Assembly (NCBI RefSeq): GCF_965363235.1
Contig: NC_134842.1
Location: 34,104,757-34,168,756, forward strand
DNA from: Mytilus galloprovincialis
Taxonomy: Eukaryota
Length of the DNA stretch: 64,000 bases
Reading direction: 5' to 3'
Shown here: piece after piece, positions 9,775 through 45,425 of the stretch
Layout of the letters: each line of letters starts with the position of its first letter
Numbering within the stretch: position 1 is the stretch's first letter
The notes under the pieces: generated by a model
Database searches by the model: none
The model's input: the letters and a program-made list of their open reading frames with translations, nothing else
Told to the model about the DNA's origin: nothing
Program-made: the position numbers and the translations under genes

Positions 9775-9965
9775 AACAAAAACAACCAGATGCTCCGCAG
9801 GGCGTAGCTTTATACGACCACAGAGGTCGAACTCTGAACAGTTGGGCAAGTATGGACACAACATTTAAGCTTGATACAGCTCTGAATTTGGATTGTGATT
9901 AAATAGTTGACACAACATAGGTTTCTGACACAGAATGAATGTGGTCTGAGAAACTTAAACCATGG
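9775..9965. repeat. Segment X: about 190 bp present again as an inverted copy at 45240-45425. Contains the TATACGACC motif.
   Basis: 9775-9965 CAGATGCTCCGCAGGGCGTAGCTTTATACGACCACAGAGGTCGAAC...GACACAGAATGAATGTGGTCTGA equals the reverse complement of 45240-45425. Confidence 0.75.
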
Positions 9966-11345
9966 AAGTATTATATTGACAGGAACTACAACGATTAATT
10001 AGCATTTATTTATAACCCGGGTAGCCCTGTAGAAAAGATATGGAAACTGTCTAATTAATACGCTGTCGTTAATTTCTTTTGTGACTATCTGCGATGCCGC
10101 AGTCATAAATTGACCAGAGATACTTCTTATCAATCACGTGGTTTTAATCGAGACAGCTTAACAATATTACCTGTCGGAAAACACCTTTACTTATTCCAAT
10201 CGCCTCCGTAGACCTTTATTCGTGAACAACTTATTTAAACAAATCGACTGATGCATAAAAAATGAAAATCGACCCAGAATTAATTATTCTACAACGATTT
10301 GAAATAGTGAGTGACATTATTTTATTAGTTTGTGGGTGAAGTTTAAATCGCGATTAAGGTGTGTTCCGGTTACCGCCGGTTAACATTAAATATATTTGAT
10401 AAATATTAAAACTGTGAAGTTTAGAGTAATATATATGGTTAAGTTACTGGATAATCCTGGAAAGTAGAAATTTCCAGTTTACAATACGAAAATTAATCGA
10501 GCAAGTACCAATCAACAAAATACAGCAGAAGAAAACAGAGATCTAACTACGTTATATAGATATTTATATAATACATTTCTGTCCCCTAAAATATGTTAGC
10601 ACTATCCGACCAAATGAAACCGTCCAAATGATACTGGTAAATATTATTGAACAGTCGCACAAGTATATGTATAATGTCACTATACAAATCCTTGAGTCGC
10701 AGTACTAAAAAGTATTTCAACGCATCGGGGTTCAGCTGAACAGTCGTATATATACCAACCAATGATCTTACCCTGGATTTAGAACGAAGCTTAATAATTC
10801 CTACATTTACTCAAAATCTCTTTGATCCGTTTTGATTTTATCAGAACGATCATTTACAATCGTCTTAAATATGCAGGAAATGTGTGCCACTCAATGGAGT
10901 AAACAGTAGTTATTATATAATCACAACTTGCGATATATATTACATATAGTGCACTTTCTACCGAAAAAATAAATCAATAAAAATGAGGCATTTATTCAAT
11001 AATTTGGTACAAATTTCCATTGTCAATGTGTTTTTCTATAGAATTAATGATGACTCGCACTAATCCATCAATCACTCAATCGGCACAGTTAGGTAACGGA
11101 ATCTGCCGAGGTTTGCCGATTGCTGTTTCCTAAAAATTGATCACAACTTTTGATTTCTTCGTTTATTTCCGTTATCCCGAAAGCAACCGAGAATGACAAT
11201 ATTGTAGGGCACCACACGCTGGTATGTAAATAACGTGCCATGTTTCAAGCTAATTAACATGTCATTAAATTGGGCGCGGCATCGCAGATGAAACGTTTGA
11301 AGTCGGGTCGTAGTAGTTCCTGTCAATATAATACTTCCATGCTTA
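9960..11345. mobile_element. TIR-bounded insertion of about 1.4 kb. TIR CATGGAAGTATTATATTGACAGGAACTAC...CTGCGATGCCGC at both ends, inverted. No convincing ORF.
   Basis: 9960-10110 is nearly identical to the reverse complement of 11200-11345. The element separates segment X from the satellite array here, but is absent from the inverted copy at 44640-45240. Confidence 0.6.
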
Positions 11346-12125
11346 AACTTAACCCAAAAACTTAAAAATTTTAAATTGGACATTTACCTATTATGGTCCA
11401 ATATCCAAAATCTAAATACATGGTTAGATTCAGCATATCATAGAACCCCAAGAATTGTCCTTCTTTTACTTTAAGGGTCCTTAAACTTTACAGATTGACT
11501 TCTTTCATGGTTATAGTTAGGTTAGATGTTTTAGGTTAGGGTTAGGTTTTAGGGTTAGAGCTAGTGCTAGGTTTAGGAATCAGTTAGGGTAAGGTTTGGG
11601 GTTAGGGATAGTTTAGTATAGCTCTATATGGCTTGGTACTCCTAAAGTAAAAGAAGGCCCAAGAATTCAATTTTTTATGAAATCAAATAATGTTCAATTT
11701 TAGACCCTTTAGACCTCAATGTGGACCAATTTGATAAACAGGCCCAAATATTAAAAATCTAAATACATGGTTAGATTCAACATATCAAAGAATCCCTAGA
11801 ATTCAATTTTTGTTGAAATCTAACAAATTTTAATTTGGGACCCCGATTTGGACCAACTTGAAAACTGGGCCCATAATCAAAAATCTAAGTACATGTTTAA
11901 TTTCAGCATATCAAAGAACCCAAAGAATTTGATTTTTGTTAAAATCAAACTAAGTTTAATTTTGGACCCTTTGGACCTTAATGTAGACTAACTTGAAAAC
12001 AGGACCAAATATTAGGAATCTAAATACACGGTTAGATTCGGCATATCAAAGAACCCCAATGATTCATTTTTTGATGAATTCCAATATACGACCAAAACAT
12101 TTTCAATTTTTGCGGTCGCATAAAA
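11340..12125. repeat. Satellite array, about 140-150-bp unit, about 5 copies. An inverted copy of the same satellite lies at 44250-44640.
   Basis: Repeating unit ...AATCTAAATACATGGTTAGATTCAGCATATCAAAGAACCCCAAGAATTCAATTTTTGATGAAATC...GGACCAATTTGAAAACAGGCCCAAATATTAAAA... The array ends in the TATACGACC...GGTCGCATA hairpin at 12084-12122. Confidence 0.8.
11480..11620. repeat. Degenerate interstitial telomere-like tract (TTAGGG/TTAGGTT)n
   Basis: ttaggttagatgttttaggttagggttaggttttagggttagagctagtgctaggtttaggaatcagttagggtaaggtttggggttaggg. Confidence 0.6.
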
Positions 12126-12439
12126 ATAGTATATATCATTAAAAATGAATGAATAATCTTCTTTTATGGTATCTTCTGTTCTAAAATCTATATATTAATT
12201 TATAAAACACTTTTTTCCATGACTTATCTCCCTTGTTGATGGATTTTTTAAAAACATTATTTGAAATAATTTTAGGTAAACATCTCTCTTTAATCCTTGA
12301 TAATGTGATTTTTGCATTAATATGTTCAAGTCGTGGTAATTCTATAGCTTCAAAAAATGATAATATTCATTAGATATTGTATAAATTCTGTTTTAGAAAA
12401 ATAGCCCTCATTACAGAAATAAAAATCTTGAAAAGTCTT

Positions 12440-12545
12440 TCACAAGTCTCTTTCTTTGAAGTTCACCATGATACCAGTTTTTGCTCTCAAAACAACTTCC
12501 ATGAAAGGTTCAACAACATGATCTGGATCTAGTGATACTTCAAAT
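12440..12545 (-). CDS. CYP4 paralog A exon 12 (C-terminus + stop)
   Basis: Acceptor ttttaacag|ATTTGAAG. Translation FEVSLDPDHVVEPFMEVVLRAKTGIMVNFKERDL. TGA stop at 12440-12442. Exon lengths sum to 1518 nt = 505 aa + stop. Confidence 0.8.
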
Positions 12546-12917
12546 CTGTTAAAAACAAAAATACTTATATAATTCATGATCTAAAATTACACATTACAGA
12601 ATTTATCTTAATCCGTTATTTTGGGCAATTAAACTTTATGTAATGTAAAAAAGGTACAAATTAATGTAACCTATCAATTATTTCAACTTCGTACTTGAAT
12701 TGGCGTACAAAACTTTAATTCTTGTATCTATGATGAATTATTTGTATATATTATATTTTGACTCAAAGCATAACTAAGCACTTATCTATATCAGAAACAA
12801 ACAAACAAAAATCATTAAAATACTTTAAATACAGTTTTCTAACTATTTTAACTAAGTTTGAATTTTGAAAGTGGTAGGTTTTTATTTGCCTACCTGTTAA
12901 AATACATTTAATCATAC

Positions 12918-12983
12918 CTTTTGATTATTCTTGCAATCATCACTTTTTCTTCATTCTGTGCAAAATTCATTCCAATACAGTTT
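12918..12983 (-). CDS. CYP4 paralog A exon 11 (heme-binding Cys loop)
   Basis: Acceptor ttttcag|AAACTGTATTGG. Translation (R)NCIGMNFAQNEEKVMIARIIKR, completing FSAGPRNCIG. Donor AAG|gtatga. 66 nt. Confidence 0.85.
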
Positions 12984-13379
12984 CTGAAAAGTTAAATTAT
13001 ATTAATTAAATCGTCATATATAAAATATAATTATATCTTCCAAATTAATCAAGAAGAAATGATGAGAAATGCATTGCTTATTTGATGTTTGCTTAGTATA
13101 AGTGGTAAATATTGCATGTATATTCTTTATGAGGGTGTACTGGTAAGTGTGTGCTCAATTAAATGTAATATTTATAGTATGTGAAATTTATATTCAGTCC
13201 AATGGAAGAACATTTCACTTGGGTACAGACTACAGTTTGTGTGATTGTTTTTTTTTTTTATATTGTGTGACTAAGCTCTTAAATTTTCATCATGGTATTG
13301 CTTTCAAATTTCTCTCCTCAACATCCCAATGCATTGAATTTTACCTTGGTCACAAAAAAAAAACCTGGTGTAGAACACA

Positions 13380-14128
13380 ATATATCCCATTCTTGATATG
13401 GGAGATAACTCATTATTGAATAAAAATATTTGGTCAAACTATATGGATCCATCTCATAAAGCTGCATACCTCATATCTTTTTTGGTTTATTAAATAATTA
13501 ACTCATATTTACCTTTTAACCATAGAAATAGGAGCACATCTATAAGGAGATGTCACATAAGGAGTATTTTGCACAAATACCTCTGCTTTACATGGGAGAT
13601 AACTCATATTTCACTTGAATCAACTGAAGTTTTAGCAAACTTTCATGATGGTTTTTGAAGATAAAAATTGGAATTATAATATTTTTTTATTAGTTTAGAA
13701 TTTCATGGCAAGTAAGTCTTGTGTTTTAAGCTCTTCTTTCTCTGATTAATATTGGAGAAAGAAAGAGCTAAAATCAAGGTTAGATTCACTTGATCTAAGT
13801 CAGGGGTTTACACAGTATATATTGGAGATGATACATATCTTACTGGAGCCAGCAAATAATAAAGTAAAAGTTCAAGGATCTGATGTGAATATGGGAGATT
13901 ATCCTCATTGATATAGGAGACAACTCATTTATAACTCCGCACCTTTTCTCAAAACATGTCTTATTATACAGATCTTTCCAATAGTGTTTTTCCCTCAAAT
14001 CTCATGGTTTATTACAGAAATAGTTTTTATTTAACTTGTTCCCGAAAGAAAAAAGTTTTAAGAAAAAGGTATAAAGTAATTACCAGTTATGAGTTATCTC
14101 CCATATCAAGGTCAGATAAATATTTACC
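13380..14128 (-). repeat. Intron-10 tandem array in paralog A: degenerate copies of the exon-10 3' end, splice donor and downstream TATCTCCC motif
   Basis: Repeated GATGGATCCATATAG.TTTACTCCATTTTCAGCTGGACCAAGgtaaat...TATCTCCCATATCAAG-like units, about 100-200-bp period. Same position as the arrays at 31200-31529 (B) and 62797-63330 (C). Confidence 0.7.
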
Positions 14129-14210
14129 TTGGTCCAGCTGAAAATGGAGTAAAGCTATATGGATCCATTTCATGATGTTTGTCTCCCTCAAATCTCTCTG
14201 GTCTAAACTC
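14128..14210 (-). CDS. CYP4 paralog A exon 10 (PERF motif)
   Basis: Acceptor tttctag|GAGTTTAGACC. Translation EFRPERFEGDKHHEMDPYSFTPFSAGPR. Donor AAG|gtaaat. 83 nt. Confidence 0.85.
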
Positions 14211-14699
14211 CTAGAAATGAAAATAAACAAAGCTGTGATCACAATACAACCTTTTGTTTTTCATTATTTACTATCATTACTGTCACATAATAAATTATCT
14301 GAATTTTTATACACATTAATTACAACAATAAGAAAAGGACCAACTTAAATTAACAAATTGTATTAGTGTGATTAAATATAATGAACAGCCTTACAGAAAC
14401 AAGACTCAGCTATTCTCACATTTGCACCAGCATTTTTATTTTAATCTTTATGTAGGAACATCATTTCTGCTCATCTAAAAATCATGTTCAAATTATGAAG
14501 CAGTTTACATGTTCTTTTAAAAATGTATATAAAATTCACGATATGCTCTCATGGAATTATAATTTACACATTTGTAATAATTACACTACTATATGTAAAG
14601 ATTAAAAGGAAGATGTTTTTACAAACTAAGAGATTACATGGTAGTAAGAAAACCAGGGCAGGCTAAAAAAAATATGTTCTGTATATTGTAAGACCTACT

Positions 14700-14895
14700 G
14701 TAGGATTTTGCCAGACATCAGGATGATTTTGAGCATGGTAAATACCCAGATCTATTAATATTCCAGCAGGTATCTCTACACCATTGGTAACAACAGGTTG
14801 ATCTAGCATTCTGTTGACTATGGATACAGGCGAATGTAATCTCATTACTTCCTTTAAGAAACACGTCAAGTATCTCAAATTTGATAGATCTTCAC
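14700..14895 (-). CDS. CYP4 paralog A exon 9 (K-helix ExxR)
   Basis: Acceptor ttatttag|TGAAGATC. Translation EDLSNLRYLTCFLKEVMRLHSPVSIVNRMLDQPVVTNGVEIPAGILIDLGIYHAQNHPDVWQNPT. Donor ACA|gtaggt. 196 nt. Overlaps track ORF 14663..14878. Confidence 0.82.
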
Positions 14896-15716
14896 TAAAT
14901 AAAATAAAAGAACTGTAGACTTAAAAATAATATTTTAGAAAGAATGTTTATGATAATAGAGCTTTTATTACAAAAATAATTCCAATGAAAAATTTTTTTT
15001 TAACTGATAAGTTGTATACTGAGGATTCATTATTATTCATTTGATACCAATTTTAGTGGATTTCATGGTAACCTGTAAATCCCATATTTCATTGTAAGAT
15101 GAATTAATGTGGTACCTAACACTACAGGGAAATAACTCTGTAAAATCAGCTAAACGTTTTAATTACTTTGTGTTGTTTAGGGAATATTAAGCTTCTCAAT
15201 GATCAAAATAAGGGTTGGTCAAACTGCTATATAACCAGTGTAATTTTCCTGATAAAACGGTTGGTTCAAATTTTTTGAAATTTTTACATTTTTGTTAGAG
15301 GGTCAAAGTAAATACTTTGTTAAAATTTTATGAAAATTAAAGGAGCCAAATTTATTTTAGTGAAGGTACCTTAAATGACTTTTCTATAAGAATATATTCA
15401 GACTTTGGTAAAACCATGAAATCAAATATCCACAAAATTACAAGTCTTCCTCAATCAACGAAAAATGGTACGCTCAAAAATAAATAATCCACAGTAGGTG
15501 TATAACTATACAATGACATAATTTTATATTCATTTGCAAAAATGTAATTTTCTAATACTATATCTAATAAATTATAAAAAAAATAAATTCAGTCACCATG
15601 TAAAACTTGTTTTCAAGCTACAAATTGTGAACAAAATGACATGCTTTGTAATCAAAGGTACAGGTATTTTTATGCAACTTTATAGAAAGAGAACTAAAAA
15701 TAAAATACAATTTTAC

Positions 15717-15840
15717 CTGTCAACAGTATTTTTGCTGCCAATGACCTGTTTAATTTCCTGATAAACTTTGTCCTGGATAGCTTTGAATTTACCCAAACAA
15801 TACATACTCCAACTAAGCACACAAGATGTTGTGTCATGAC
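15717..15840 (-). CDS. CYP4 paralog A exon 8 (I-helix GHDTTS)
   Basis: Acceptor ttctag|GTCATGAC. Translation (G)HDTTSCVLSWSMYCLGKFKAIQDKVYQEIKQVIGSKNTVDR. Donor AG|gtaaaa. 124 nt. Confidence 0.8.
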
Positions 15841-16476
15841 CTAGAACATAAACTCTTCCATATAAAGCGGTATGCAAAATATAGTTAAGATCTGAGTTTT
15901 ATAACTTCTACTTCTATAAGGATTTAGATATCAAACACAAAGAAATAATTAAATGCTTAAAAATAAATCACAAGTTTTATCGACTCTGGACGATTTTGAG
16001 GTTGACTATGATATTGTTAAGACATCTGTTTGTTGTTGAAGACTTTGTTGCCCTTCAGATGTCTTTCGGTTATTTTTTTGGTTGGGTTTCTGTATCATTA
16101 ATGTATACCCCTCTTCTCCTTTAAATCATATTTGTTAATGGCAAAGTGAACAGTTTCTCTTTACTTGTTTGTTTTATTTTATTACATAAGATAATATATA
16201 CTGACAAACTCTATTCCTTGCACAGGATTAAACATGAAATGGAAGATATATCGTAGCTACTAGTAATCATATTCAATCAGAAATAATCTTTGAGAAGAAT
16301 AGAAATGACAATCACAAATCTATCAAAAGTTAAGTTTGCTTTAATTTAAAACTTAAGATAGATAAGATGGCAGCATATGGGAATATTAATATACATATGT
16401 TTAATAGGCAAACAATTGGTGGTTACCGGCAATACTGAATCCAGTATTAGGTAGAACATTTTTGTTAAAAAATTAC

Positions 16477-16609
16477 CAGCAAAAAGGAAGGTATCGACTT
16501 CTGCCCTGATTTCATCATCCGTCAGTCCGACACCATTGTCATCTTTGGCTGTTATTAATATATCAAGGAAATCCAAGTGTTTCTTCTTCTCTGTTTCTTT
16601 ACTTTCATT
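16477..16609 (-). CDS. CYP4 paralog A exon 7 (I-helix first half, EVDTFLFAG)
   Basis: Acceptor ccaag|AATGAAAGT, with an in-frame TGA just upstream in the intron. Translation NESKETEKKKHLDFLDILITAKDDNGVGLTDDEIRAEVDTFLFAG. Donor G|gtaatt. 133 nt. Confidence 0.8.
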
Positions 16610-17261
16610 CTTGGATGATCATTTATAAAATATATTAGATTTAAATTTAATTCTATCATTGCTTGATAATCAAAGAAAAAAAATATAGTCAAAATAGTTT
16701 CTTTGCTTATTTATAATACTGTCAAGTTAAAGAACCAACAATTGAGAGAAATTGTTTCATTATATCACAACTTACTTTATTAAGAATTTTCATGACCTAA
16801 TTTTGAGAATCAAAATTTCTTATGTATTTTTTATAATAATATTTTGGTTATATGTTGACTGACAGGGTTTGGTGTAAAATTATGAGTGAAATCAATTATC
16901 TCCCCTTAAATATATGATTTTATTTTTGTCCAGAAGTGGAACACATTTTTTTTATTGACCAGGAACAATTTATAAATATTGATTTACTTAAATCAATTTT
17001 TATTTGCAGAAAATGCTATTAATTGAATCAACCCTAGATGTGGTAATTTTGAAATATAAAAGACATAAGTTTAAAGTATACTGTGGATTTGTGTATTTTC
17101 TTGGGTATCATTTTTTGGATTTGGGGAAATTTGTATTGTGCGGATATTTAATTTCATGGTTTTGCCAAATTCTACATTCAAGAATTTAAAACATTTATTC
17201 TTCGTTAAAATTTAAATTTGCATTAATATTTATCCTCCAAATCCCCCATGAGAGTACCTAC

Positions 17262-17388
17262 CAGTTCTTTTCTTCTTGTAGAAATGATATCTTTTGAGAA
17301 TTTATGAACATAATCACAAAGTTTAAAGAATTCTCTGCCATTGGCTGTCAGGTATCTATATATGAACTCTGGGTAGTGGTGAATATAT
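17262..17388 (-). CDS. CYP4 paralog A exon 6
   Basis: Acceptor ttctgtag|ATATATTC. Translation YIHHYPEFIYRYLTANGREFFKLCDYVHKFSKDIISTRRKEL. Donor CTG|gtaggt. 127 nt. Overlaps track ORF 17223..17426. Confidence 0.8.
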
Positions 17389-17639
17389 CTACAGAAAAAA
17401 AATCCAATAAAGTTAAATATGTACATTTAAAATATGCAAAAAACTGATTATATCTTTGCCCTAAAAGAAAACGAAGTCTCTATCAATGAAAGTTCTTTTA
17501 TTCGTTGTTTTCATTTATTATGTTGATGGAGTACAGGAGTGAAGAACTCCCTCCCCAATCTGTACTCACAACAGTTAATCAAAACCACAAAGTCTTATAC
17601 AAGGTTTTTAATGGTAATTAAATCAAAGAATTTAAAAAT

Positions 17640-17990
17640 ACTCAATGAAATATTCATTACAATTGGATTCCATTGAATAATATACAATTACTGTCTTTTG
17701 ATGAGGTAAATGTGTAGTTTTATTGACTTTTGAAAAATTGATATTCACTGAGGCCAAAGGTCAAAAGTCAATTAAACCACATATTTACCGAAACAAAAGA
17801 CAGTAATTGTTTTATTCCATATTCCGAGAGAAATGTATGTAATGGCAGTTATGAATCAAAACCAATTGTACATCAATCGTTTTTTTTACAAAAATAGTGC
17901 AGGTAAAAGCACCCGACGTTATGCGCGGTGAATATCCTTTTTCCGCAGGTGAATATGCTTATTTATTCAAAATCCCATTCATATAGAAAA
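17640..17990. mobile_element. MITE-like hairpin (17687-17815, about 48-bp arms) plus adjacent repeat. A related copy lies at 29560-29830.
   Basis: CAATTACTGTCTTTTGATGAGGTAAATGTGTAGTTTTATTGAC...GTCAATTAAACCACATATTTACCGAAACAAAAGACAGTAATTG. GGTGAATATGCTTATTTATTCAAAATCC is shared with the reverse complement of 29590-29620. Confidence 0.6.
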
Positions 17991-18159
17991 ACCTACTAAA
18001 GTTTTATCAATATGGAATAATTTTTTTTATTTTATTGTTTCATTCTTAATTTCTTGATAGAAATATTAAATTATAAAATATTGCCCTATATTTTCAGAAA
18101 GAAAAAAGACAACATCTTCCAAAGAATTTTGTATAGTTATATTAATTGATAATACTCAC

Positions 18160-18222
18160 AAACATCTTTCCTGAATGTGAAAACCAAGTCGATTCACTGC
18201 TATTACATATGGATGGTGTTCT
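18160..18222 (-). CDS. CYP4 paralog A exon 5
   Basis: Acceptor ttttcag|AGAACACC. Translation EHHPYVIAVNRLGFHIQERCL. Donor TT|gtgagt. 63 nt. Confidence 0.72.
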
Positions 18223-18672
18223 CTGAAAATAAGGAAGCAACTATTACGTTAAACCTGCTAACTTTTTATGCACTTGTCATAAGTCAGAAGCCTGTTGTTC
18301 AGTGGTTGTTCAGTGATTGTTGTTTGTTAGTGTGTTAAAAACACAAGTGTTTCTTGTTTCTCGTTTTTAGACTGTTGGTTTTCCTATTTGAATGGTTTAA
18401 AATGATTTTTGGGGCACTATATAGCTTGTTGTTCAGTATGAGCCTAGGCTCCATGTTGAAGACCGTACTTTGACATATAATAGCTATATAGTTTACTTTT
18501 AAAAATTGAGACTTTGATGGAGAGTTGTCACATTGGCACTCATAACCAATCTTCCTATACCTTTTGTAAAAGAATATTTTTTTTCTATCAATTTTTGATC
18601 AATTGAAGATGAAAAGTAATATCATATACGTACTACAATTTTATAGAATTATTAACAAAATATTTTACATAC

Positions 18673-18797
18673 CCAACTTGTTGTACATCTCCCTTATATC
18701 CCAAGGCACACTGAAGTAGAGTGTCTAATGTAGCCATGCTAGCTGGTTTGAATATATCTATGTATTTTCTCTTTTCACACATAGTTGCCAATTTATC
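18673..18797 (-). CDS. CYP4 paralog A exon 4
   Basis: Acceptor ttttag|GATAAATTGG. Translation DKLATMCEKRKYIDIFKPASMATLDTLLQCALGYKGDVQQVG. Donor GG|gtatgt. 125 nt. Confidence 0.78.
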
Positions 18798-19501
18798 CTA
18801 AAATAAATGTTTTCACAAGAATTGTGTGGTAGCTATGTGATCAAATCAGTAAGGATTTTATATTTGTTTCTTTTTGTTTTTCGATTGTATACTTCAGCAT
18901 GTTTGATTTCAATAAGAATAATCATAGTACCTTGAAAATATTATTATATTTACAAATGTAGTACTTTATCAACATGATAAAACTAGATAGGAACAGCTTC
19001 TCCTATGTTTATTTCTCAACAGTAATATTTTCTAAAATTCCTCAAATCTTTACTTAAACTCCCATAAAGTATCAGAGATTCAATTGAAACTACTTTTAAT
19101 AAAAAGCTTATCATTCATTTACTAGACAATATATTTGCATCAATTAGGCTGTTAGTTATCTTACTTGAATTGTTTTACATTTGTCATTAAATAAGGCCTT
19201 TTATAGATGACTATGTGGAAAATTATACCACATCTTTTTTATTTTTATTGGTTAAATCATTATTTCTATTTAATAATGGAATACTGTGGATTCATTTATT
19301 TTCTAGGGTATCAATTTTCGTGGATTGCTGAAAACTTGATTTCGTGGTTTTGACAATATCTGTATACAAAGCCTATTAAAACAGATGTATTTAACAGTTG
19401 ATTTCTAGGTTCACCTGTATCCACGAAACCAACGAAAAGTGGTATCCAACGAAGAATAATTAATCCACAGTATTGAAGAAAGGCATTAATGTTTTACTCA
19501 C

Positions 19502-19629
19502 CATTAATACATCGGTAACTTCATTGTAAATCTTGAAATACCCCGTCAATATACTGAAGTGGAATGCTGGTGTCAACAATCGACGATTTCTCTCCCATTT
19601 AGCTCCATTTGATAATAGAAGACTTTGAC
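19502..19629 (-). CDS. CYP4 paralog A exon 3 (helix-C signature [15 protein letters not shown])
   Basis: Acceptor ttttatag|GTCAAAGT. Translation [42 protein letters not shown]. Donor ATG|gtgagt. 128 nt. Confidence 0.82.
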
Positions 19630-20336
19630 CTATAAAAGGAATAGGAATGAAAAATGAAAACAATCTGTAGGACTTAATGAAAGAAGAAATGTACAAATTT
19701 TTCATTTTACACTGATAATAATACAGCAATGAAGATAATAGAATAGATTTATCTTTATACTTTATGCATTTTCTTAAAAGAATGTTTTCTGAAGCTGAAG
19801 CTTGTCTCCCCATGCTGGATTTTCTCACTTTGTTGTAGATCCATTAATGGCTATGAGCTGTTTTCTACTTTTTGGTCAGTAGTTGTCTCTTTGACACATT
19901 CCCCATTTCCAATTTCATTTTTATATATCTGATATAAATGCTTCTTGAGGAATTCTGTCAATCTTAAGTCTTCTGTTAAAACGAACATTAGATAAAGAAA
20001 GTCCTGATAGTTTCATAAATTGTCTTTGCTCAACACAATCATTGTTCCCTGTTGCAATGTCAAAACTATTAGTAAAAATTTCACCTTAGTATTTCTATTG
20101 AAATTTGCAATGCCAGTCTATTCTTTCATTTTACAAAATAATATAAATCTGAAGTATATTTGTCAATATCTTTTACATTTCGTAGGATGTCAAATTTTGA
20201 TGTGAAGAAATTACAAAGAATTCAATTATATTATCTTAGAAATTCAATATTTCTATGCTAAACTTAAGGAATGAACAAGTACATGTATTGATTTATTTAT
20301 ATAGACACAAGTATCTTTGATTTAACCTAAGAATGT

Positions 20337-20500
20337 ATCATTTAATTTAATATGTTTAAGGCAGGGGGAGATAATTAATATGTTTAATGCAGGGGGAGAA
20401 AACTAATATGTTTATTTCAGGGGGAGATAATTAATATGTTTAATGCAGGGGGAGAAAACTAATATGTTTATTTCAGGGGGAGATAATTAAATATGTTTTT
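20337..20500. repeat. 28-bp minisatellite (GTTTAATGCAGGGGGAGATAATTAATAT)n, about 6 copies, with one inverted copy at 20670-20710
   Basis: Read directly; in intron 2 of paralog A. Confidence 0.85.
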
Positions 20501-21311
20501 AATGCAAGACAATCATAAACAAAAATGTATTTAATATAGCTAAGGTATTAATATTATTTTATGAAACTTATTTATTTTAGAAAATGGAGGTTACCACGCT
20601 CTTGTTTTCTTGATATATTGCAAATTACTATTAAAAAATAAAACTGATTCACATTATTTTAATATTTCCTTAAATTATCTCCCCCTGAATTGAACACATT
20701 AAACATATTTCATAATAACCAAACTTTATTATTTTTACATAAAATTGTACATGTAACGTTGTATTGTTAGATGAGGGTCTATATGTGGTTTTTATAATCA
20801 AGAATAATGGGAGAAAAATTGAAGATATAGAGAAAAATTTGGCCGAAAATATTGAATAAAAATTATTAGATGCTAAATTGAAAATTCAATTGAAAAGACC
20901 AAAACATATTTGAAAGAATGTTTAGTAGAACAAAAAATGTAAAGAAATTAAAGAATAAAAATATTCAAAATTCCCTGTCGAGAGCCTCTTTCATATCGAT
21001 CTCATTAGTTTGTCACCCCATACCACCTTTTCCCCTTAAGGTACTGTAGATTTATTTATTTTAGCTGATACTTATTTTCTTGGATTGAAAAAAAAAATGT
21101 ATTTTAGTAACAATCATATTTGATATAGTGGTAAGTAAAAGTCTGGATTTAAACCTATAGAAAGTTCGTGATTTGTTAAAAACATGTAAATTTGTGGTTT
21201 ATCAAAACCCATAAAATCCACAAAAAATGGTAACCCACGAATAATAATGAATCCACCTGTACAGAACACTTGAAAAAACAATACTATTGAAAGGATCTGA
21301 AATATCTATAC

Positions 21312-32897: not shown

Positions 32898-32929
32898 CTG
32901 AAATACCAAAACAGATATAACAACATGAA

Positions 32930-34288: not shown

Positions 34289-34421
34289 CAGCAAAAAGGA
34301 AGGTATCAACTTCAGCTCTGATTTCATCATCCGTCAGTCCTATGCCATTATCATCTTTGGCTGTTATTAATATATCCAGGAAGTCCAAGTGTTTCTTTGC
34401 CTCTGTTTCTGTACTTTCATT
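34289..34421 (-). CDS. CYP4 paralog B exon 7 (I-helix first half)
   Basis: Acceptor ttttag|AATGAAAGT. Translation NESTETEAKKHLDFLDILITAKDDNGIGLTDDEIRAEVDTFLFAG. Donor G|gtacat. 133 nt. Confidence 0.8.
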
Positions 34422-34855
34422 CTAAAAAGATGCATATAATGTCTACAAATGGCATTATTTCTTATTTCACAGCAGGTTAAGCAATAAAAGCTTGCTTTTT
34501 TGTAAGCAGAGCATACTCTGACACAGTATAATCATATCATGAAGTTGTGTTATTTTTGTACATTATGTACTGGTGTTTATATTAAATTATTACAGAGTAA
34601 AGTGGATTCATTTATTTATGTCGGAAAAGATTTTTGTGGAATGAGGAAAATTTACACTTTCGTGCATATTTCAATTTTTGGTTTTCCTGAAGTCAGCATA
34701 CAAGTCTTTACAAAATTTGTAATTCATTGAATATTTGAATTCCCGGTCCACCTGTATCCTTGAAAATTTCGAAAATTGGTAGTCAACAAAAAATAATGAA
34801 TCCTTAGTAATTAACTTTATACTCCTATACACAGTTAGTACACGATATAACATAC

Positions 34856-34982
34856 CAACTCTTTTCGTCTTTTAGATATTATGTCTTTTGAGAATTTATG
34901 AACATATTCACAAATCTTGAAAAATTCTTTACCATCAGCAGTAAAATATCTGTATATGAACTCTGCATAATGATGAAAATGG
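34856..34982 (-). CDS. CYP4 paralog B exon 6
   Basis: Acceptor ctttgcag|CCATTTTC. Translation HFHHYAEFIYRYFTADGKEFFKICEYVHKFSKDIISKRRKEL. Donor TTG|gtatgt. 127 nt. Confidence 0.78.
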
Positions 34983-35096
34983 CTGCAAAGAAAATATCAA
35001 ATGAACCTACTTATTCATAATGGGTAAAATGATCTTACAAGACAGTATTAAAGGGAGACAATCATATATATTCATTTATGGCAGACAATACAGCAA

Positions 35097-35390
35097 CAGC
35101 CGACCGTGCAAGGGCTGTATAGCCAGTCAAAGTCATTTAGACCGTGCAAGGGCTGTATAGCCAGTCAAGGTCATTTAGACCGTGAAAGGGCTGTATAGCC
35201 AGTCAAGGTCATTTAAACCGTGCAAGGGCTGTATAGCCAGTCAAGGTCATTTAAACCGTGCAAGGGCTGTATAGCCAGTCAAGGTCATTTAAACCGTGCA
35301 AGGGCTGTATAGCCAGTCAAGGTCATTTAAACCGTGCAAGGGCTGTATAGCCAGTCAAGGTCATTTAAAACTTCGATTATCATGCAGCAA
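35097..35390. repeat. 42-bp minisatellite (GACCGTGCAAGGGCTGTATAGCCAGTCAAGGTCATTTAAAC)n, about 7 copies, in intron 5 of paralog B
   Basis: Read directly. Confidence 0.85.
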
Positions 35391-36538
35391 CACAAGTGTT
35401 GGGGTTATATACTATGCAAATCAATGTGTGAGGTCAATAATATGAAAATCAAGTTATAAACACTTTTTTAATTTTTTTTAATTTTGATCAAACAATTGTA
35501 TTTCCCTGAGAACAAAAGAACATAGGCCAATACCATAGATAGACACATTATGTGGTATAGGTTTTGCTCATTATTGCAGATTGTACAGTAATGTATAGCA
35601 TCTACATAGATTAATTCACCTCTATTGATCTATGGTAGAGAGTTATCTCATTGGCAATCACACCACATCTTCTTATTTTTAAGCATTCTTGTTCACAATG
35701 TCTTTAATGTGCTTCTCTTTCAGGCTTTATGGTACTATAGGGGGTATATTTTATCACCATATACCTGTATTTTTATCTCAAAGTGTAAGCACTGTTAGAG
35801 GGTTAAAGGTATATGAAAAGCAAGGAGATGTTGTATGATTGGTCATAAGACAACTATCAACCATAGTTAAAAGTGTAGATGTAAACAACTATAGGTCAGT
35901 ATATGACCTTCAATAATGAGCAAACCCATTCTGTATAGTCTGACAGCTATACCAGAGTTCTAGAAATCTATTACCCCTGGCGGTCCTTGAAAGAATATAT
36001 GCTGGTCCTCACTATTATTGCAAAATACCAAAATTGTGTTGGTCCTATGCAAAATGTTGGTAGTCAAAACCTTCGTATCACCACTTTTCAGGAACTCTGC
36101 TATAAAAGGATCAGACATGACTGAATGAGAAATATAGCTAACAAGAAAACCAATAACCTGATTTATATTTAAAGTTATGTGGCAAATCTGATATAAAAAT
36201 CTATTCCATACCATGAAACATACTTCATCATGTATCATACCTCAAGACTAAGAGATTGACATGAAGGGAGGTGTGTCAATCCCTAACATTTAGGATTACT
36301 AAATATACAAAGTCTCTAAATAATTTTTAACAAATTTAAGGGGTGTTCCTGAATTGCTGTTCCCCTACATGTCTTTTTTGTTTGTTTGATTGTATTGTTG
36401 TGATACTGTCTCGATGACATTAACCCCAAATATTCATGTTTATCATAGTACAAACGTGATGCAAATGACATAAACAAAGCTACTTATACTATATACATGT
36501 ACCATGAAGTAAAAGTATCAAGCTTCTGATAAACTTAC

Positions 36539-36601
36539 AAACTTCTTTTATCAATCAGATGTCCCAGACGATTTACTGCTGTCACATACGGATGGCTGTC
36601 T
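36539..36601 (-). CDS. CYP4 paralog B exon 5
   Basis: Acceptor ttttcag|AGACAGCC. Translation DSHPYVTAVNRLGHLIDKRSL. Donor TT|gtaagt. 63 nt. Confidence 0.72.
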
Positions 36602-37382
36602 CTGAAAAATTACAAAATTATAAACAATTAGTAGGAGATTAATGTTTCAAGAGTCAACATAACATATTTGGATCCTGTGAATTCACTGTTTCAGATTCAA
36701 AAGCATTCAGGGAAAATGTTTAAAAGCGTTCATCAAAATGTAGTCATTGGTTAAAAAGTCCTTAACAATAGAGATTCATACAATGGTGTCATGTTTCATT
36801 TTGGAGTACAAACAATGAAACAACCCATAGTCCTTTAGATTCTGTAACAGTGAATTGTAATATATTTATCAATATAAATAAAAACATTAATAAAGAATTG
36901 ATTGTACGTTTCCTACTAAGACTGAACTTTTACAAATTAGTTGTGTCCTTTATCTGAATGAACGATTTAAAAAATTGAACTTCAATTTAGGTTAATCATA
37001 CAACAAAGTTATCTGTTTATCAATCTATTTCAGAATTGTTAACATGTTCTCTCATAGGCTATTAGCACATTGTACATCTTGGAAGAACTTTTCAGGGTTT
37101 ACTGTCATTTCACATTTGTATATATCTAGAACAATGAAGTTTTTTTTGGTGAGGTTCCTTTTACTAAATCTTAAGTTATCTGAGTGTTTAATGTTTTGTT
37201 AGTCATGTTTGTTTTTAGGCAATTTGATTACTTACTTCCCTTTGGGATTTGGTTCATGTATCTTCTCTCTCTTTTTCAAACAAAAATGGCAATATTATAT
37301 CCAATACATAGTTTCATATAAAATTAAAAAGTTTGACCCCAAATTGAACCTTTTACTTTTCTCAAATCTTAAGTACCACCTA

Positions 37383-37507
37383 CCCCACAAGTTGAACATT
37401 TCCTTTGTAACCAAGTGAACATTGTAACAAGGTATCTAGAGTAGCCATACTAGCAGGCTTAAATATATCTAAATATTTTCCATCTTTACTTCCACTGGCT
37501 AGCTTAT
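37383..37507 (-). CDS. CYP4 paralog B exon 4
   Basis: Acceptor ttaacag|GATAAGCT. Translation DKLASGSKDGKYLDIFKPASMATLDTLLQCSLGYKGNVQLVG. Donor GG|gtaggt. 125 nt. Confidence 0.78.
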
Positions 37508-38298
37508 CCTGTTAAAAATAAAATAAAGAAAACTATCAATTAAAAACTTCATTCATTTCATATTTATATATTACATTTGTATCAATATAAATGGAAAATT
37601 TAATCACTATTGGCAATATATCATTTTCAATACTGCGCAGTAAATCTTTTACTAAATTTTTAGCATTAACTTGTAAATGTACATTAAGTTTTATATCTTT
37701 TAGTCTTGTAACCGTATTCATTGATCCAGACTAAAAATGATACCTAACTAAAACTAACAAATCTGTAGGTTCTTAAGAATATAGTTTGTTCAACTGGTGC
37801 ATGTCGATCTTAAACTTTTTATGTGTTAAGATGATTATATACTTCCTTTAACAATCTCTTTATAACTATATTATATAATTGTTAAAAATGACCAAAACTG
37901 CACTTTTAGAGTATCTTCATATCATCACCTATGGATAATGACAAGCTGATTTGACAATCAGGTGGGATAAAAACTATGTAAAGACTTTTTGACAAATCGG
38001 TTATCTGAAGTTTTATTTCAGCTTGTGGTTCAACATACTTACAAATAAAATTATATATGGTGAACCAACACCTGAAATGATTGTGTGGAAGAGTAAAATG
38101 CAGGTGGATACCTTAACCTATTCACAGTTGTCTTTTACCAAGATAATAGATATAACGATATTTAAGATAACAACACCTTCAACATAGCACTAGCCATCTG
38201 GCAACATGCACCCTGTTTCACTCAAAACTAGCAAGACTTTTTCACAGAATCACAGTGTGAATATACTATAGTGGAAACTAGATGTTACCATTACTTAC

Positions 38299-38426
38299 CA
38301 ATAATACATCAGCCACTTCATTGTAGAGCTTAAAATACCCTGTCAGTATATTAAAGTGGAAAGCTGGTGTCAACAATCGGCGATTTCTCTCCCATTTTGG
38401 TCCATTAGCTATTAACAAGCTTTGAC
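38299..38426 (-). CDS. CYP4 paralog B exon 3
   Basis: Acceptor ttttaag|GTCAAAGC. Translation [42 protein letters not shown]. Donor TTG|gtaagt. 128 nt. Confidence 0.82.
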
Positions 38427-38489
38427 CTTAAAAATGATAACAATTAATTCAATAATTAAATATCTGTGCTGTGCTTCATATCATTTTAA

Positions 38490-38698
38490 GGGGGTAGACC
38501 TAGGTTAAGGGAAATTACTCTTAAAATCATCAGTATGTTTGTGTCAACCATTTTCATAAATATATTCTAAGCTTCTAGGATACATAGGCTATTTCCAATC
38601 TGTTTCAGGTAAATGCTTAAAATACATTGAGGAAACTTGACATTCAGAAACACAAGAGTGATTTAAAGAGTTATCTCCCTGAACCAAGGTCTACCCCC
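38490..38698. mobile_element. MITE of about 210 bp with TIR TAAAGGGGGTAGACC (in intron 2 of B)
   Basis: TTAAGGGGGTAGACCTAGGTTAAGGGAAATTACTCTT...AAGAGTTATCTCCCTGAACCAAGGTCTACCCCCTTTAA. Confidence 0.65.
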
Positions 38699-39232
38699 TT
38701 TAAAAAATCTCTTGTGAATGTGAGACAAAAGAGGATTCATAACCTGCCCATAAATAATGCTTCAATATGAGATTTTACCAAGAGAATGTGAATATAGATC
38801 AATATAGGCACGGGGAAGACCTATAATGTCTATTAAGTGTATCATGTGGTAAAATGATAGTTAACTTTGAGTCTGATTATGCTTGAAGATGATGTGAATT
38901 TAAAATCAGACATTATAAATTTATTGTTAATTCAGCAATCATTGCATGCATTTATAATTGCGATTTTTGTAGAATGGACAAAAATGCAAGTAATTTCGAT
39001 TTCAGGAAACTTTGCATACAGATATATGTATCAGATGTCAGAATGTGACTTCTCACTATTGCAATACTCACTCAGTCCCATAATAAGCATGAATAAAACC
39101 TCACAATCATTTTCAATTTATAGTATTTATACAAAAACTCTTGTGCTCACCTTTTTTTCATGATATTGTTGACCTGAAAATCAATGTATTTCATTGCAAC
39201 TGATGTTATAAGTTTATCTAATCACAACTTAC

Positions 39233-39431
39233 CTAGCCATGGAACAAGAAAAGGATATCCTGGACCTATCGTTGTCTTTGGAGCATTAGATCTCATTACA
39301 ACTTTAATGGTGTCTGGATGTGCCAGGATAATAATTGGTTGGAATCGAAACAACCAAAACACATATAGTTTATCTCCCTTCCCTATACACTCCTCGTGCA
39401 TCCTAAACATCAGGTCACTGAAATCTTTTAT
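39233..39431 (-). CDS. CYP4 paralog B exon 2
   Basis: Acceptor gttttcag|ATAAAAGAT. Translation IKDFSDLMFRMHEECIGKGDKLYVFWLFRFQPIIILAHPDTIKVVMRSNAPKTTIGPGYPFLVPWLG. Donor G|gtaagt. 199 nt. Confidence 0.8.
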
Positions 39432-40282
39432 CTGAAAACACATTTATGTATATTATAACAACAAGGACAACAACAGCAACACCACTTGATTTTCAGAGGG
39501 TTACATGGTTAGTTTTTACTAATCTTCCCCAAGCCCTCATCAATTAAAACTAATTTCTATAACAAATCTAGCTGCTACATGCAGCTGCTTAAAGCTTGTG
39601 ATTAACAGTGAAGCAGGCACCTTTAAAATTTCTGAATTGAATGTCTTATCAACCACATTTAGGTGTGTATTCACTACCAGCTTTTTTACCCAAGACATCA
39701 TGTGGTTGGTAGAGGGAATGTGTATCATACACAACTATCATACATCACTGAAGACTCTGCAGTCGTTTTTTTTTTAAATAAAAAAAACCAAGAATGTGTC
39801 CATAGAACATGGATGCCCCACTCACACTATCATTTTCTATGTTCAGTGGACCCTGAAATTGGGGTTAAAACTCTAATTTGGCATAACGATTAGAAAGATA
39901 ATATCATAGGGAACATGTGTACTAAGTTTCAAGTTGATTGGACCTCAACTTCATCAAAAACTACATGTACCTTAACTAAATACTTTATCCTAAAGTGGGA
40001 CAGACGGAGGAACAGATGAATGGTCGGACAATTGAACTAAGGAATGAACGAATAGACGAACAAATGGATGCACAGACCAAAAAACATAATTCCCCTAAGT
40101 GGGGCATAAAAATCTTTATAGCTTTAAAAATCAGTTTTCTCATATGACTTTAAAAGATCTTATCAAGCTAAACTTTAAGGAAAACATTCCATCAAAATTT
40201 TACTGATAATTAAATTCTAATTATTGTTTGCATAAAACTTTCAACTGGTATCAAGAGTTTTTTTTCTGTACTGATTTTGATT

Positions 40283-40420
40283 GCACATGTACATGAGGAG
40301 TGTATAGGGAAGGGAGATAAACTATATGTGTTTTGGTTGTTTTGATTACAACCAATTATTATATTGGCACTAATCCAGATACCATTAAAGTTGTGATGTG
40401 ATCTAATAATTTTGTAACTT
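40283..40420 (+). pseudogene. Inverted, degenerate duplicate of paralog B exon 2 (pseudo-exon) inside B intron 1
   Basis: About 125 nt at roughly 90% identity to the sense sequence of B exon 2 (CACGAGGAGTGTATAGGGAAGGGAGATAAACTATATGTGTTTTGG...CCATTAAAGTTGT), on the opposite strand. In-frame stops. Confidence 0.7.
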
Positions 40421-40572
40421 TTTTTATTTGACTGATCATGATTGAAAAAGGGTAGTGTTTAAGTTATGTAAGTTTGGTGAAAATAAGGCTTATATCAATT
40501 ATCCCTAAATAAAGGAAGATTTACATAAACATGATAAAAAGCTATATAAATCCAACATGAAATAATTATTAC

Positions 40573-40737
40573 CTGAAAAATATTTCCAAAGAACCAATGT
40601 GGCTTTGGACCTGGTAATTTTGAAACAGACGTTATCACAAGTCTCAGCCATTTCAAATATTTAAATATTCTAATAGCAGCATAGGTCAACACTAAGGTCA
40701 CAGCACCGACTACAAATGTCCATGTTAATGTACCCAT
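40573..40737 (-). CDS. CYP4-family P450 paralog B, exon 1 of 12
   Basis: ATG at 40735-40737. Translation MGTLTWTFVVGAVTLVLTYAAIRIFKYLKWLRLVITSVSKLPGPKPHWFFGNIFQ. Donor CAG|gtaata. 165 nt. Confidence 0.8.
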
Positions 40738-43529: not shown

Positions 43530-44640
43530 TTTTTTTGTTCTTTTTATACGACCGCAAAATTTGAAAAATTTTTCGTCGTATATTGCTATCACGTTGGCGT
43601 CGTCGTCTGCGTCGTCGTCGTCGTCCGAATACTTTTAGTTTTCGCACTCTAACTTTAGTAAAACTGAATAGAAATCTATGAAATTTTAACACAAGGTTTA
43701 TGACCACAAAAGGAAGGTTGGGATTGATTTTGGGAGTTTTGGTCCCAACATTTTAGAAATTAGGGGCCAAAAAGGGTCCAAATAAGCATTTTCTTGGTTT
43801 TCGCACTATAACTTTAGTTTAAGTTAATAGAAATCTATGAAATTTTGACACAAAGTTTATGACCACAAAAGAAAGGTTGGGATTGATTTTGGGAGTTTTG
43901 GTTCCAACAGTTTAGGAATTAGGGGCCAAAAAAGGGCCCAAATAAGCATTATTCTTGGTTTTTGCACAATAACTTTAGTTTAAGTAAATAGAAATCAATG
44001 AAATTTAAACACAATGTTTATGACCACAAAAGGAAGGTTGGTATTGATTTTGGGAGTTGAGGTCCCAACAGTTTAGGAATTAGGGGCCAAAAAGGGACCC
44101 AAATAAGCATTTTTCTTGGTTTTCGCACCATAACTTTAGTATAAGTAAATAGAAATGTATGAAATTTAAACACAAGGTTTATGACCATAAAAGGAAGGTT
44201 GGTATTGATTTTGGGAGTTTTGGTCCCAACAGTTTAGGAATAAAGGGCCCAAAGGGTTCAAAATTAAACTTTGTTTGATTTCATCAAAAATTGAATAATT
44301 GGGGTTCTTTGATATGCTGAATCTAAAAATGTACTTAGATTTTTGATTATTGGCCCAGTTTTCAAGTTGGTCCAAATCGGGGTCCAAAATTAAACTTTGT
44401 TTGATTTCATCAAAAATTGAATGATTGGGGTTCTTTGATATGCCAAATCTAACTGTGTATGTAGATTCTTAATTGTTGGTCCCGTTTTAAAATTGGTCTA
44501 CATTAAAGTCCAAAGGGTCCAAAATTAAACTAAGTTTGATTTTAACAAAAATTGAATTCTTGGGCCTCTTTGATATGCTGAATCTAAACATGTACTTAGA
44601 TTTTTGATTATGGGCCCAGTTTTCAAGTTGGTCCAAATCA
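43530..44640. repeat. Composite satellite region: a (TCG)n microsatellite plus a hairpin at 43545-43630; an about 180-bp-unit array x4 at 43640-44250; and the inverted copy of the 11340-12125 satellite at 44250-44640
   Basis: TTTCGCACTMTAACTTTAGT...GGTCCCAACAKTTTAGRAATTAGGGGCCAAAAAGGGTCCAAATAAGCATT repeats. Followed by GGGTCCAAAATTAAACTTTGTTTGATTTCATCAAAAATTGAAT..., which is the reverse complement of the left-hand satellite. Confidence 0.8.
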
Positions 44641-44870
44641 GGATCCAAATTATTATATTAAGTATTGTGCAATAGCAAGAAATTTTCAATTGCTCAGTAT
44701 TCAGCAATAGCAAGAAATCTTCAATTGCACAGTATTGTGCAATAGCAAGAAATCTTCAATTGCACAGTATTGTGCAATAGCAAATATTTTCAATTGCACA
44801 GTATTGCACAATAGCAAGAAATATCTAATTGCACAATATTGTGCAATAGCAAGAAATTCCAATTGGATTT
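44640..44870. repeat. About 38-bp minisatellite with an internal palindrome (ATTGCACAGTATTGTGCAATAGCAAGAAATCTTCA)n x6
   Basis: Read directly; TTGCACA..TGTGCAA palindromic cores. Confidence 0.85.
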
Positions 44871-45239
44871 CAATTGGAGTTATCTTTCTTTGTCCAGAAT
44901 AGTAGTTGAATCAACTTAAAACATTGTTTTATACAATATACAATGTATATTCACTTTTACTACCAACTGATAGATTAAAACAATCTTTACCATTCAGTTA
45001 TAACAAGCACTTTTTTTACATTTTAATATTTTATGATGTATTTAAATGAGTAGTTATTGTTGCAAACTTCATTAGAAATTTGAATTGAGATCAGTTTTGA
45101 AATAAGGGAAAGGGGGATGTGAAAAAAAAATTGGGGGGTCAATTTTTTTCATTTCAGATTTCATAAATAAAAAGAAAATTTCTTCAAACATTTTTTTGAG
45201 AGGATTAATATTCAACAGCATAGTGAATTGCTCAAAGGC

Positions 45240-45425
45240 AAAATTTTTTGTTTAAGTTCATTAGACCACATTCATTCTGTGTCAGAAACCTATGCTGTGT
45301 CAACTATTTAATCACAATCCAAATTTAGAGCTGAATCCAGCTTGAATGTTGTGTCCATACTTGCCCCAACCGTTCAGGGTTCAACCTCTGCGGTCGTATA
45401 ATGCTGCGCCCTGCGAAGCAACTGG
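45240..45425. repeat. Inverted copy of segment X (9775-9965)
   Basis: Reverse-complement match, including CGACCTCTGCGGTCGTATAATGCTGCGCCCTGCG. Confidence 0.75.

Follow-up and report, generated by a model that had tools for sequence, protein, structure and literature searches.

Organization of the CYP4 locus

The stretch of Mytilus galloprovincialis DNA analysed here (contig NC_134842.1, positions 34,104,757 to 34,168,756; the whole 64,000 nucleotides are called the window below) carries three CYP4 paralogs, genes A, B and C, and two repeat blocks that lie in inverted orientation about 31 kb apart and enclose exactly genes A and B. An earlier note, made from the sequence alone, had described the blocks as one composite inverted repeat resembling Helentron-type elements. 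The analyses presented below indicate, with a probability that we put at about 0.87, that the two blocks are separate copies of one non-autonomous Helentron-type family (HINE; of the same kind as pearl, MgE, DTC84 and Cg_HINE), here named HINE_L and HINE_R. That they lie inverted and on either side of A and B is a coincidence.

The CYP4 genes are as follows.
12443..23369, minus strand: CYP4 gene A (ATG at 23369, stop at 12443; tblastn exon map); the stop lies ~320 bp from the HINE_L 5' end
30061..40737, minus strand: CYP4 gene B; 2.8 kb separate the ATG from the HINE_R 5' end
50114..63639, plus strand: CYP4 gene C, which lies outside the enclosed segment and head-to-head with B; the last exon probably runs past the window edge

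Exons were mapped by tblastn. The best PDB match of the spliced gene A product was CYP4B1 (2e-62). The same product was near-identical to M. galloprovincialis P0003/P0124, and M. galloprovincialis RefSeq products were best-scoring for A, B and C, which by itself places the window in Mytilus and most likely in M. galloprovincialis. Of the three genes, A and B form the closest pair (67-96% per exon, against 42-89% for either with C). The right block lies inside the 9.4-kb divergent spacer between the start codons of B and C. The claim that the repeat copies enclose exactly two minus-strand CYP4 paralogs was borne out by this map, A and B lying between the copies and the third paralog outside.

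Orthologous CYP4 loci were compared from M. galloprovincialis 'Lola' (L001, UYJE01001268.1, and the gene C contig L009), M. trossulus (L002 and L004), M. edulis (L003, OY782961.1, and L005), M. californianus (L006 and L007) and M. coruscus (L008). Four marine-metagenome contigs, L011 and L012 among them, were retrieved with a 29-nt pattern of the 3' end.

Two collinear blocks in inverted orientation

Comparison of the window with itself by blastn and by a word-match dot-plot revealed three modules common to both blocks, none of which occurred again in the 64-kb window by blastn. Module X (9778-9960) matched X' (45433-45250) in inverted orientation with 89.7% identity over 184 bp (E 1e-65). A 126-bp satellite at 11394-12084 matched 44246-44652, also inverted, with up to 89.8% identity over 254 bp and 76-90% over the satellite, and a 45-bp terminal hairpin module matched between 12082-12126 and 43585-43541 with 88.9% identity. 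In the dot-plot X, the 126-bp array and the hairpin end were collinear. A repeat in inverted orientation around A-B is therefore present, as blocks 9784-12121 (minus strand) and 43546-45427 (plus strand). The palindromes that had been described were all located: both blocks end in the same imperfect palindrome TATACGACC...GGTCGTATA, on the right a palindrome GAAAAATTTTTC is nested in it (43563-43574), and the TATACGACC motif occurs within X at 9810-9822 and within X' at 45389-45401. The polarity implied in the earlier note was reversed, the hairpin end being the 5' end and X the 3' end.

The right copy is made up of the following parts, tandem arrays having been identified with Tandem Repeats Finder (TRF).
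43546..45427, plus strand: HINE_R, long 'R-type' variant, 1882 bp, delimited by the M. trossulus empty site and the family termini
43546..43583, plus strand: 5' end, with the 5' subterminal inverted repeat (subTIR) ATACGACCGCA (43546-43556), the complementary inverted repeat TCGTCGTATAT (43573-43583) and the nested palindrome GAAAAATTTTTC
43596..43626, plus strand: (GTC)n microsatellite of the left flank, read from the sequence; also in the M. edulis copy L003:1539
43638..44253, plus strand: 161-bp tandem array, 3.8 copies, 90% matches (TRF); absent from the left copy
44253..44652, plus strand: 126-bp tandem array, 3.1 copies (TRF, blastn); the only array in common with the left copy
44661..44865, plus strand: 35-bp palindromic tandem array, 5.9 copies (TRF)
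44866-45249, plus strand: 385-bp unique spacer, also in L003, L011 and L013
45250..45427, plus strand: X', right flank (3' module), with the 3' subTIR TGCGGTCGTATAA (45389-45401), the palindrome GCTGCGCCCTGCGAAGC (45403-45419) and the terminus ...CTGGTT at 45427

The satellite of the right block had been taken as one array at 43530-44640; the 126-bp array common to the left block was recovered, but the right copy really holds three unrelated arrays. One 161-bp monomer contains an ApaI site (GGGCCC), and from this site and the 161-bp length the repeat may be linked to the Mytilus ApaI satellites. On inspection by eye, no clear match was evident with the published BIV160 primers (PMC5139131). 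A scan of both blocks against Rfam, bearing on a possible short interspersed element or RNA gene origin of X, returned no match at gathering score, and the 35-bp array and the 385-bp spacer gave only weak sub-threshold microRNA-like matches. A literature text search with the terminal motif TATACGACC / GGTCGTATA returned unrelated primers only.

The left copy carries two nested insertions, one a transposon with terminal inverted repeats (TIRs) and a target site duplication (TSD), the other resembling a miniature inverted-repeat transposable element (MITE).
9784..12121, minus strand: HINE_L, short 'L-type' variant, 2338 bp, ~750 bp without the two nested insertions; empty sites in M. trossulus and M. 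californianus
12084..12121, minus strand: 5' end, with the subTIR ATGCGACCGCA (12121-12111) and the inverted repeat TGGTCGTATAT (12094-12084); no microsatellite
11394..12081, minus strand: 126-bp tandem array, interrupted at 11457-11657 (TRF, blastn)
9784..9960, minus strand: X, right flank (3' module), with the 3' subTIR (9822-9810), the palindrome (9808-9792) and the terminus CTGGTT ending at 9784
9961..11341, no strand assigned: nested 1381-bp TIR transposon with 43-bp TIRs, termini CATGGAAG... and CATGGAAGTATTATATTGACAGGAACTAC, and a 7-bp TSD CTTAAAC (9954-9960 and 11342-11348)
11457..11657, no strand assigned: nested ~200-bp MITE-like insertion within a 126-bp monomer, with a TIR CCTTCTTTTACTTTAAGG (17-18 bp) and a 10-bp direct repeat CCCAAGAATT

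The 1381-bp transposon is missing from Lola (L001) and from M. edulis (L005), where the site is uninterrupted and holds a single CTTAAAC. The TSD and these empty sites substantiate the earlier claim that a 1.4-kb TIR element had inserted between X and the satellite, and the comparison shows that the insertion is recent or polymorphic. The element is non-coding and specific to the window haplotype among the window, Lola and M. edulis; its 7-bp TSD and CATG termini are reminiscent of P-type elements. The ~200-bp MITE-like insertion, whose interior consists of degenerate telomere-like TTAGGG/GTTAGG repeats, occurs in the orthologous copies L001 and L005 but not in the paralogous copy L012.

The R-type architecture was also found in M. 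edulis L003 (1534-3805) and in the metagenome contig L011, and the L-type architecture, with neither of the nested insertions, in the metagenome contig L012. Because each architecture recurs in this way, the two window copies are members of two subfamilies of one family.

Termini and structural hallmarks of the family

At least 10 copies beyond the window pair were found in the fetched loci and the four metagenome contigs, all ending in ...GCATCTGGTT or ...GCATTTTATT. The 3' end ...GCAT(C/T)T(G/T)(G/A)TT is common to at least 12 copies (four Mytilus species and the four metagenome contigs), and the flanks diverge directly past this terminus. Three independent copies have in common a 5' end in which TTTTT is followed directly by AT(A/G)CGACCGCAAAA.

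As described by Thomas et al. and in Crassostrea (PMC4067079, PMC7492417), from which our criteria were drawn, a HINE has a subTIR of 11-15 bp a few nucleotides from its 5' end, a complementary inverted repeat beside it, a microsatellite and central tandem repeats, and towards the 3' end a second subTIR, at ~38-60 nt, and a small palindrome, at 8-35 nt; the targets are T-rich or TT, with no TSD. In the right copy ATACGACCGCA lies directly past the T-run at 43541-45, which precedes the 5' end as in other copies, and TGCGGTCGTAT(AA) lies at 45389-45401, beginning 39 nt from the end at 45427. The two subTIRs show perfect 11-bp complementarity; the pair has 2 mismatches in HINE_L and is also present in the M. 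edulis copy L003. The inverted repeat GTCGTATAT at 43573-43583 pairs with the 5' subTIR. Folding as DNA, with z taken against shuffled sequence, gave -9.2 kcal/mol (z -3.2) for the 5' hairpin of HINE_R, -6.2 kcal/mol (z -1.7) for that of HINE_L and -9.9 (z -5.1) for that of the M. edulis copy. The palindrome GCTGCGCCCTGCGAAGC lies 8 nt from the 3' end, a position conserved in all copies aligned. A (GTC)n microsatellite is present in the right copy and at L003:1539 but missing from the L-type variant; its place, after the inverted repeat and before the tandem repeats, is the one reported for Cg_HINE (PMC7492417). The 126-bp array points the same way with respect to the flanks in all four copies compared, namely left, right, L011 and L012. 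The target is a T-run at both sites (TTTTT followed by GTTTTT on the left, CTTTTT followed by T... on the right), with empty sites in M. trossulus and M. californianus.

Several observations weigh against this assignment. The 3' palindrome, of 3+3/4 bp with one mismatch in HINE_R, is weak by folding energy and no better than shuffled sequence (z -0.6 to -1.6). The spacing between the 5' subTIR and its inverted repeat is 16-17 nt, compared with 1-12 nt in Cg_HINE, and X measures 180 bp, compared with ~60 bp for the Cg_HINE right flank. No target duplication was seen beyond a possible TT, which is indistinguishable from an element-terminal TT. No Rep/helicase ORF (open reading frame) was found in the search, which covered the window and the fetched loci. 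In addition, window 45428-45448 holds ~20 bp (TATTTTAAAAGAGATTTGAA) that are extra relative to M. trossulus at the right empty site and lie outside the family consensus; an indel, filler DNA or a short read-through at the 3' end might account for this segment.

The possible TT duplication also bears on another reading, namely that the copies are MITEs moved by cut-and-paste through a DDE transposase with a TT/AA target duplication, as pearl and DTC84 were originally read. Inverted repeats of 11-12 bp lie near both ends, all copies are T-flanked 5' and end in TT, the filled sites fit a TT duplication as well as none, and the same layout has been described as a MITE with an AA TSD (PMC3879986). 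The ends are, however, strongly asymmetric: at one of them the repeat is terminal, whereas at the other it lies ~39 nt inwards, and only the latter has a palindrome close by. Thomas et al. tied this asymmetric signature to autonomous Helentrons that share the termini (PMC4067079), and pearl has been re-categorised as a non-autonomous Helentron (PMC7492417). We therefore regard a MITE origin as unlikely and retain the HINE assignment.

A canonical Helitron (5' TC ... CTRR 3', insertion between A and T, 16-20 nt hairpin ~11 nt from the 3' end) was rejected, the termini being ATACGACC... and ...CTGGTT and the target lying between T and T or between T and G in T-runs.

Empty sites and insertion history

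The left site is empty in M. trossulus (L004, 21318 joined to 21315) and in M. californianus (L006, 32182 joined to 32181). In both, the sequence corresponding to window 12122, downstream of gene A, runs straight into 9785, reading AATTTTT followed by (A/G)T(T/A)TTTGTTGTG, while the window reads TTTTT[element]GTTTTTGTTGTG. The left copy is present in M. edulis (L005) and in Lola (L001). The right site is empty in M. trossulus (L002, 7037 joined to 7039), where window 43545 is joined directly to 45449, and among the assemblies compared the right copy was seen in the window only. The outgroup flanks were uninformative for the right site: the gene B upstream flank of L007 is filled by other sequence, the L008 junction was not resolved, and in the Lola gene C contig homology begins only at window 50855. 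Within the window itself paralogous empty sites were not found, the duplicates A, B and C being too old, with only exons and a few downstream blocks aligning.

It follows from these orthologous empty sites that both blocks arrived as discrete insertions, with family termini, in previously contiguous DNA. The left copy was inserted before the split of M. edulis and M. galloprovincialis and after the split from M. trossulus. Since the species distributions of the two copies differ, left and right were inserted independently and at different times. Two further family copies lie in the gene B intron of M. trossulus at sites that are empty in the window, which shows that the family is mobile, and M. 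edulis and M. californianus carry other copies as well. Altogether 12 copies were counted in ~360 kb of CYP4-locus sequence across assemblies, about 1 per 30 kb, so that two copies in 64 kb are the background expectation, and for any two copies an inverted orientation is as likely as a direct one.

The same junctions bear on a segmental inverted duplication, in which the composite would have been copied as a unit together with host sequence. The modules of the two blocks are indeed collinear and in the same order. The homology nevertheless ends, on either side, precisely where the family termini lie; the right copy alone has the 161-bp and 35-bp arrays, the 385-bp spacer and the microsatellite; and each copy has a clean orthologous empty site and its own species distribution. 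The empty sites refute such a duplication, which we regard as extremely unlikely, and two separate HINE insertions are preferred.

Orientation of the CYP4 genes

Orientation was compared across assemblies at the left flank (M. trossulus, M. californianus, M. edulis and Lola) and at the B/C junction (M. trossulus, M. edulis and M. coruscus). The following ORF beyond gene A served as synteny anchor.
2539-3345, plus strand: intronless ORF of 268 aa, coiled-coil-like; in Lola, M. edulis and M. californianus a gene of equal length and relative orientation is annotated downstream of gene A

Its counterpart in M. trossulus has 272 aa, and no Pfam match is on record for it. M. trossulus, M. californianus, M. 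edulis and Lola, which carry 0 or 1 copies of the element, agree in the orientation both of the tandem pair B-A and of the 268-aa gene beyond A. In M. trossulus the upstream flanks of C and B meet directly, head-to-head and without an intervening element, and in M. coruscus and M. edulis C-upstream adjoins B-upstream in the same relative orientation. Because B and C are head-to-head where the right copy is absent, the gene orientation is therefore older than the right insertion and independent of the pair.

The earlier note had pointed out that large inverted repeats can drive inversion or gene conversion of the segment they enclose. On this reading ectopic recombination between the copies inverted A-B, which would explain why C is on the plus strand but A and B on the minus strand, or the pair still drives inversion or gene conversion. 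The geometry fits, the copies being inverted, 31 kb apart and exactly at the A-B edges; reversing the inversion would yield a head-to-tail array B-A-C, and the locus is structurally variable between assemblies. The orientations just described argue against it, the A-B block having the same orientation in all assemblies compared whether 0, 1 or 2 copies are present. Nor is there homogenisation: X is 90.2% identical between left and right, and the values for an unrelated M. edulis copy are no lower (90.8% against the right, 90.2% against the left). No trace of gene conversion is therefore seen, and the longest exact run common to the two copies is 55 bp. The arms do not offer the substrate expected for non-allelic homologous recombination, with ~90% identity over 180 bp and 76-90% over the satellite, and the alternative A-B orientation was found in no assembly compared. 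Intergenic paralogy across the putative inversion breakpoints was not detectable in the upstream regions within the window. Inversion as the origin of the gene orientation is largely refuted, and an active recombining pair is very unlikely. The Helentron-type resemblance that had been suggested thus stands, on the hallmarks and the empty sites, but the single composite inverted repeat with a structural role does not.

Structural variation and other repeats at the locus

Comparison of Lola L001 (1882-4276) with window 29862-31688 revealed that the segment matching 30802-31688, which holds two 3' exons of gene B (0.9 kb), is inverted relative to its neighbour; the rest of Lola gene B lies on a different contig of 34.7 kb together with gene C. 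This arrangement reflects either genuine structural or presence/absence variation or an artefact of the assembly. In M. edulis (L003 1-18400 against window 36-46 kb) identity with the window falls to ~70-89% over the 5' half of gene B and the region upstream of it, compared with 92-97% for the 3' half of gene B and the A-B spacer. In the same species different sequence stands in place of window 43482-~46720, the right element included, and other HINE copies are present in opposite orientation. The M. edulis comparison indicates that the CYP4 locus is highly structurally variable.

M. galloprovincialis is known for presence/absence variation. The inverted 0.9-kb piece of gene B in Lola and the strongly diverged 5' half and upstream region of gene B in M. 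edulis are hints that the inverted pair might contribute to structural polymorphism of CYP4 A-B, by inversion or presence/absence variation, in those M. galloprovincialis haplotypes that have both copies; alternatively, the left copy might supply 3' untranslated or regulatory sequence to gene A that is specific to the edulis/galloprovincialis lineage. We give these possibilities a slender chance.

Further repeats were observed within and beside the genes. The exon encoding EFRPERF...FSAGPR (14122-14230, 31523-31630 and 62697-62802) shows 92-94% DNA identity between paralogs, well above the other exons, and in B and C it sits in 102-125-bp tandem repeats (31301-31601 and 62765-63066) with degenerate extra exon copies; local gene conversion or exon duplication may account for this pattern. 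An intron of gene C contains a 527-bp direct duplicate with 99.4% identity (53634-54160 and 55538-56063), by far the most similar repeat in the window and thus a recent duplication or a pair of transposable elements. A 38-bp tandem repeat (x7, 98% identity) lies in a gene B intron (35103-35369), with a single related inverted unit upstream of gene A (22619-22682). Finally, a repeat of ~360-400 bp, present once in the window just downstream of the 268-aa ORF (3479-3898), forms multi-copy tandem-like arrays with ~500 bp spacing in introns and flanks of L002 (16000-17407 and 20489-22430) and L003 (3970-5325).

Proposed mode of transposition

A family copy comprises a T-run followed by the 5' end ATACGACCGCA, a hairpin formed with the nearby complementary repeat, (GTC)n in the long variant, the tandem-repeat cargo, and then the 180-bp 3' module X with the inverse 5' repeat at ~39 nt and the palindrome 8 nt from ...CTGGTT. 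The ends would be recognised in trans by the Rep/helicase(-endonuclease) of an autonomous Helentron, judging by family resemblance and by what is established for Helentrons and HINEs (PMC4067079). Copies may then transpose in a rolling-circle-type manner into T-rich DNA without real target duplication, using the 5' subTIR with its hairpin and the 3' subTIR with its palindrome. Because no autonomous Helentron with the same termini was found in the window or the fetched loci, this mode of mobilisation is one that we infer. Slippage or unequal exchange would alter the internal arrays. The left copy was inserted downstream of gene A in an ancestor shared by M. edulis and M. galloprovincialis, and the right copy went separately into the divergent B/C intergenic region.

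Relationship to known elements

The pearl family reportedly goes back to Gaffney in 2003 and MgE to Kourtidis in 2006. Pearl, MgE (M. galloprovincialis) and DTC84 (Donax trunculus) have an L flank with a subterminal repeat, up to ~6 core repeats of ~160 bp, a microsatellite, an R flank with a terminal repeat, and AA/TT ends; the pearl/DTC84 layout with AA at the ends (Satovic & Plohl 2013, PMC3879986) is the present layout read on the other strand. In the orientation of the earlier note X corresponds to the L flank and the hairpin end to the R flank. MgE comes from the same species and has been reported without a microsatellite, like the left copy here, a likeness by description. The present elements differ from this group in that they also carry the 126-bp and 35-bp arrays.

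The Cg_HINE elements of Crassostrea gigas are non-autonomous Helentrons carrying satellite DNA-like arrays (Vojvoda Zeljko et al. 2020, PMC7492417). They have the same module order (5' subTIR, inverted repeat, microsatellite, short spacer, array or arrays, 3' subTIR, palindrome), a GTC microsatellite core (GTCY/GTCC/GTCK), a constant array orientation, in some cases two unrelated arrays, T-rich targets with no clear TSD, and copies dispersed near genes. They belong to another host genus, and the resemblance to the Mytilus family is one of architecture; apart from the repeat spacing and 3' flank length given above, the Mytilus elements differ in their trinucleotide microsatellite and in the L-type variant that lacks it. 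DINE-1, HINE-Mo and the autonomous Helentrons (Thomas et al. 2014, PMC4067079) likewise have one subTIR at the 5' terminus or close to it and another ~38-60 nt before the 3' terminus, from which a palindrome is 8-35 nt away, T-runs at the boundaries, boundaries confirmed by empty sites, and a copy number above that of any autonomous partner, but the DINE-1 'core' sequence is not present here.

Since satellite-carrying HINEs have been described in bivalves, MgE in M. galloprovincialis included (PMC7492417, PMC3879986), the present elements belong to a well-documented bivalve kind, within which they add at most one newly delimited Mytilus family or pair of subfamilies. Their value for annotation lies in the exact termini, the two architectural subfamilies and the dated insertion polymorphisms of a Mytilus HINE family with two or three satellite-like arrays. 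The tempting reading that inverted repeats shaped the CYP4 cluster is removed, the gene orientation predating at least one of the two insertions; what lies at the locus are satellite-carrying insertions ordinary for a bivalve genome, not a rearrangement structure. The family has been active within the Mytilus edulis species complex, and the finding supports the established view that Helentron derivatives disperse satellite repeats through bivalve euchromatin.

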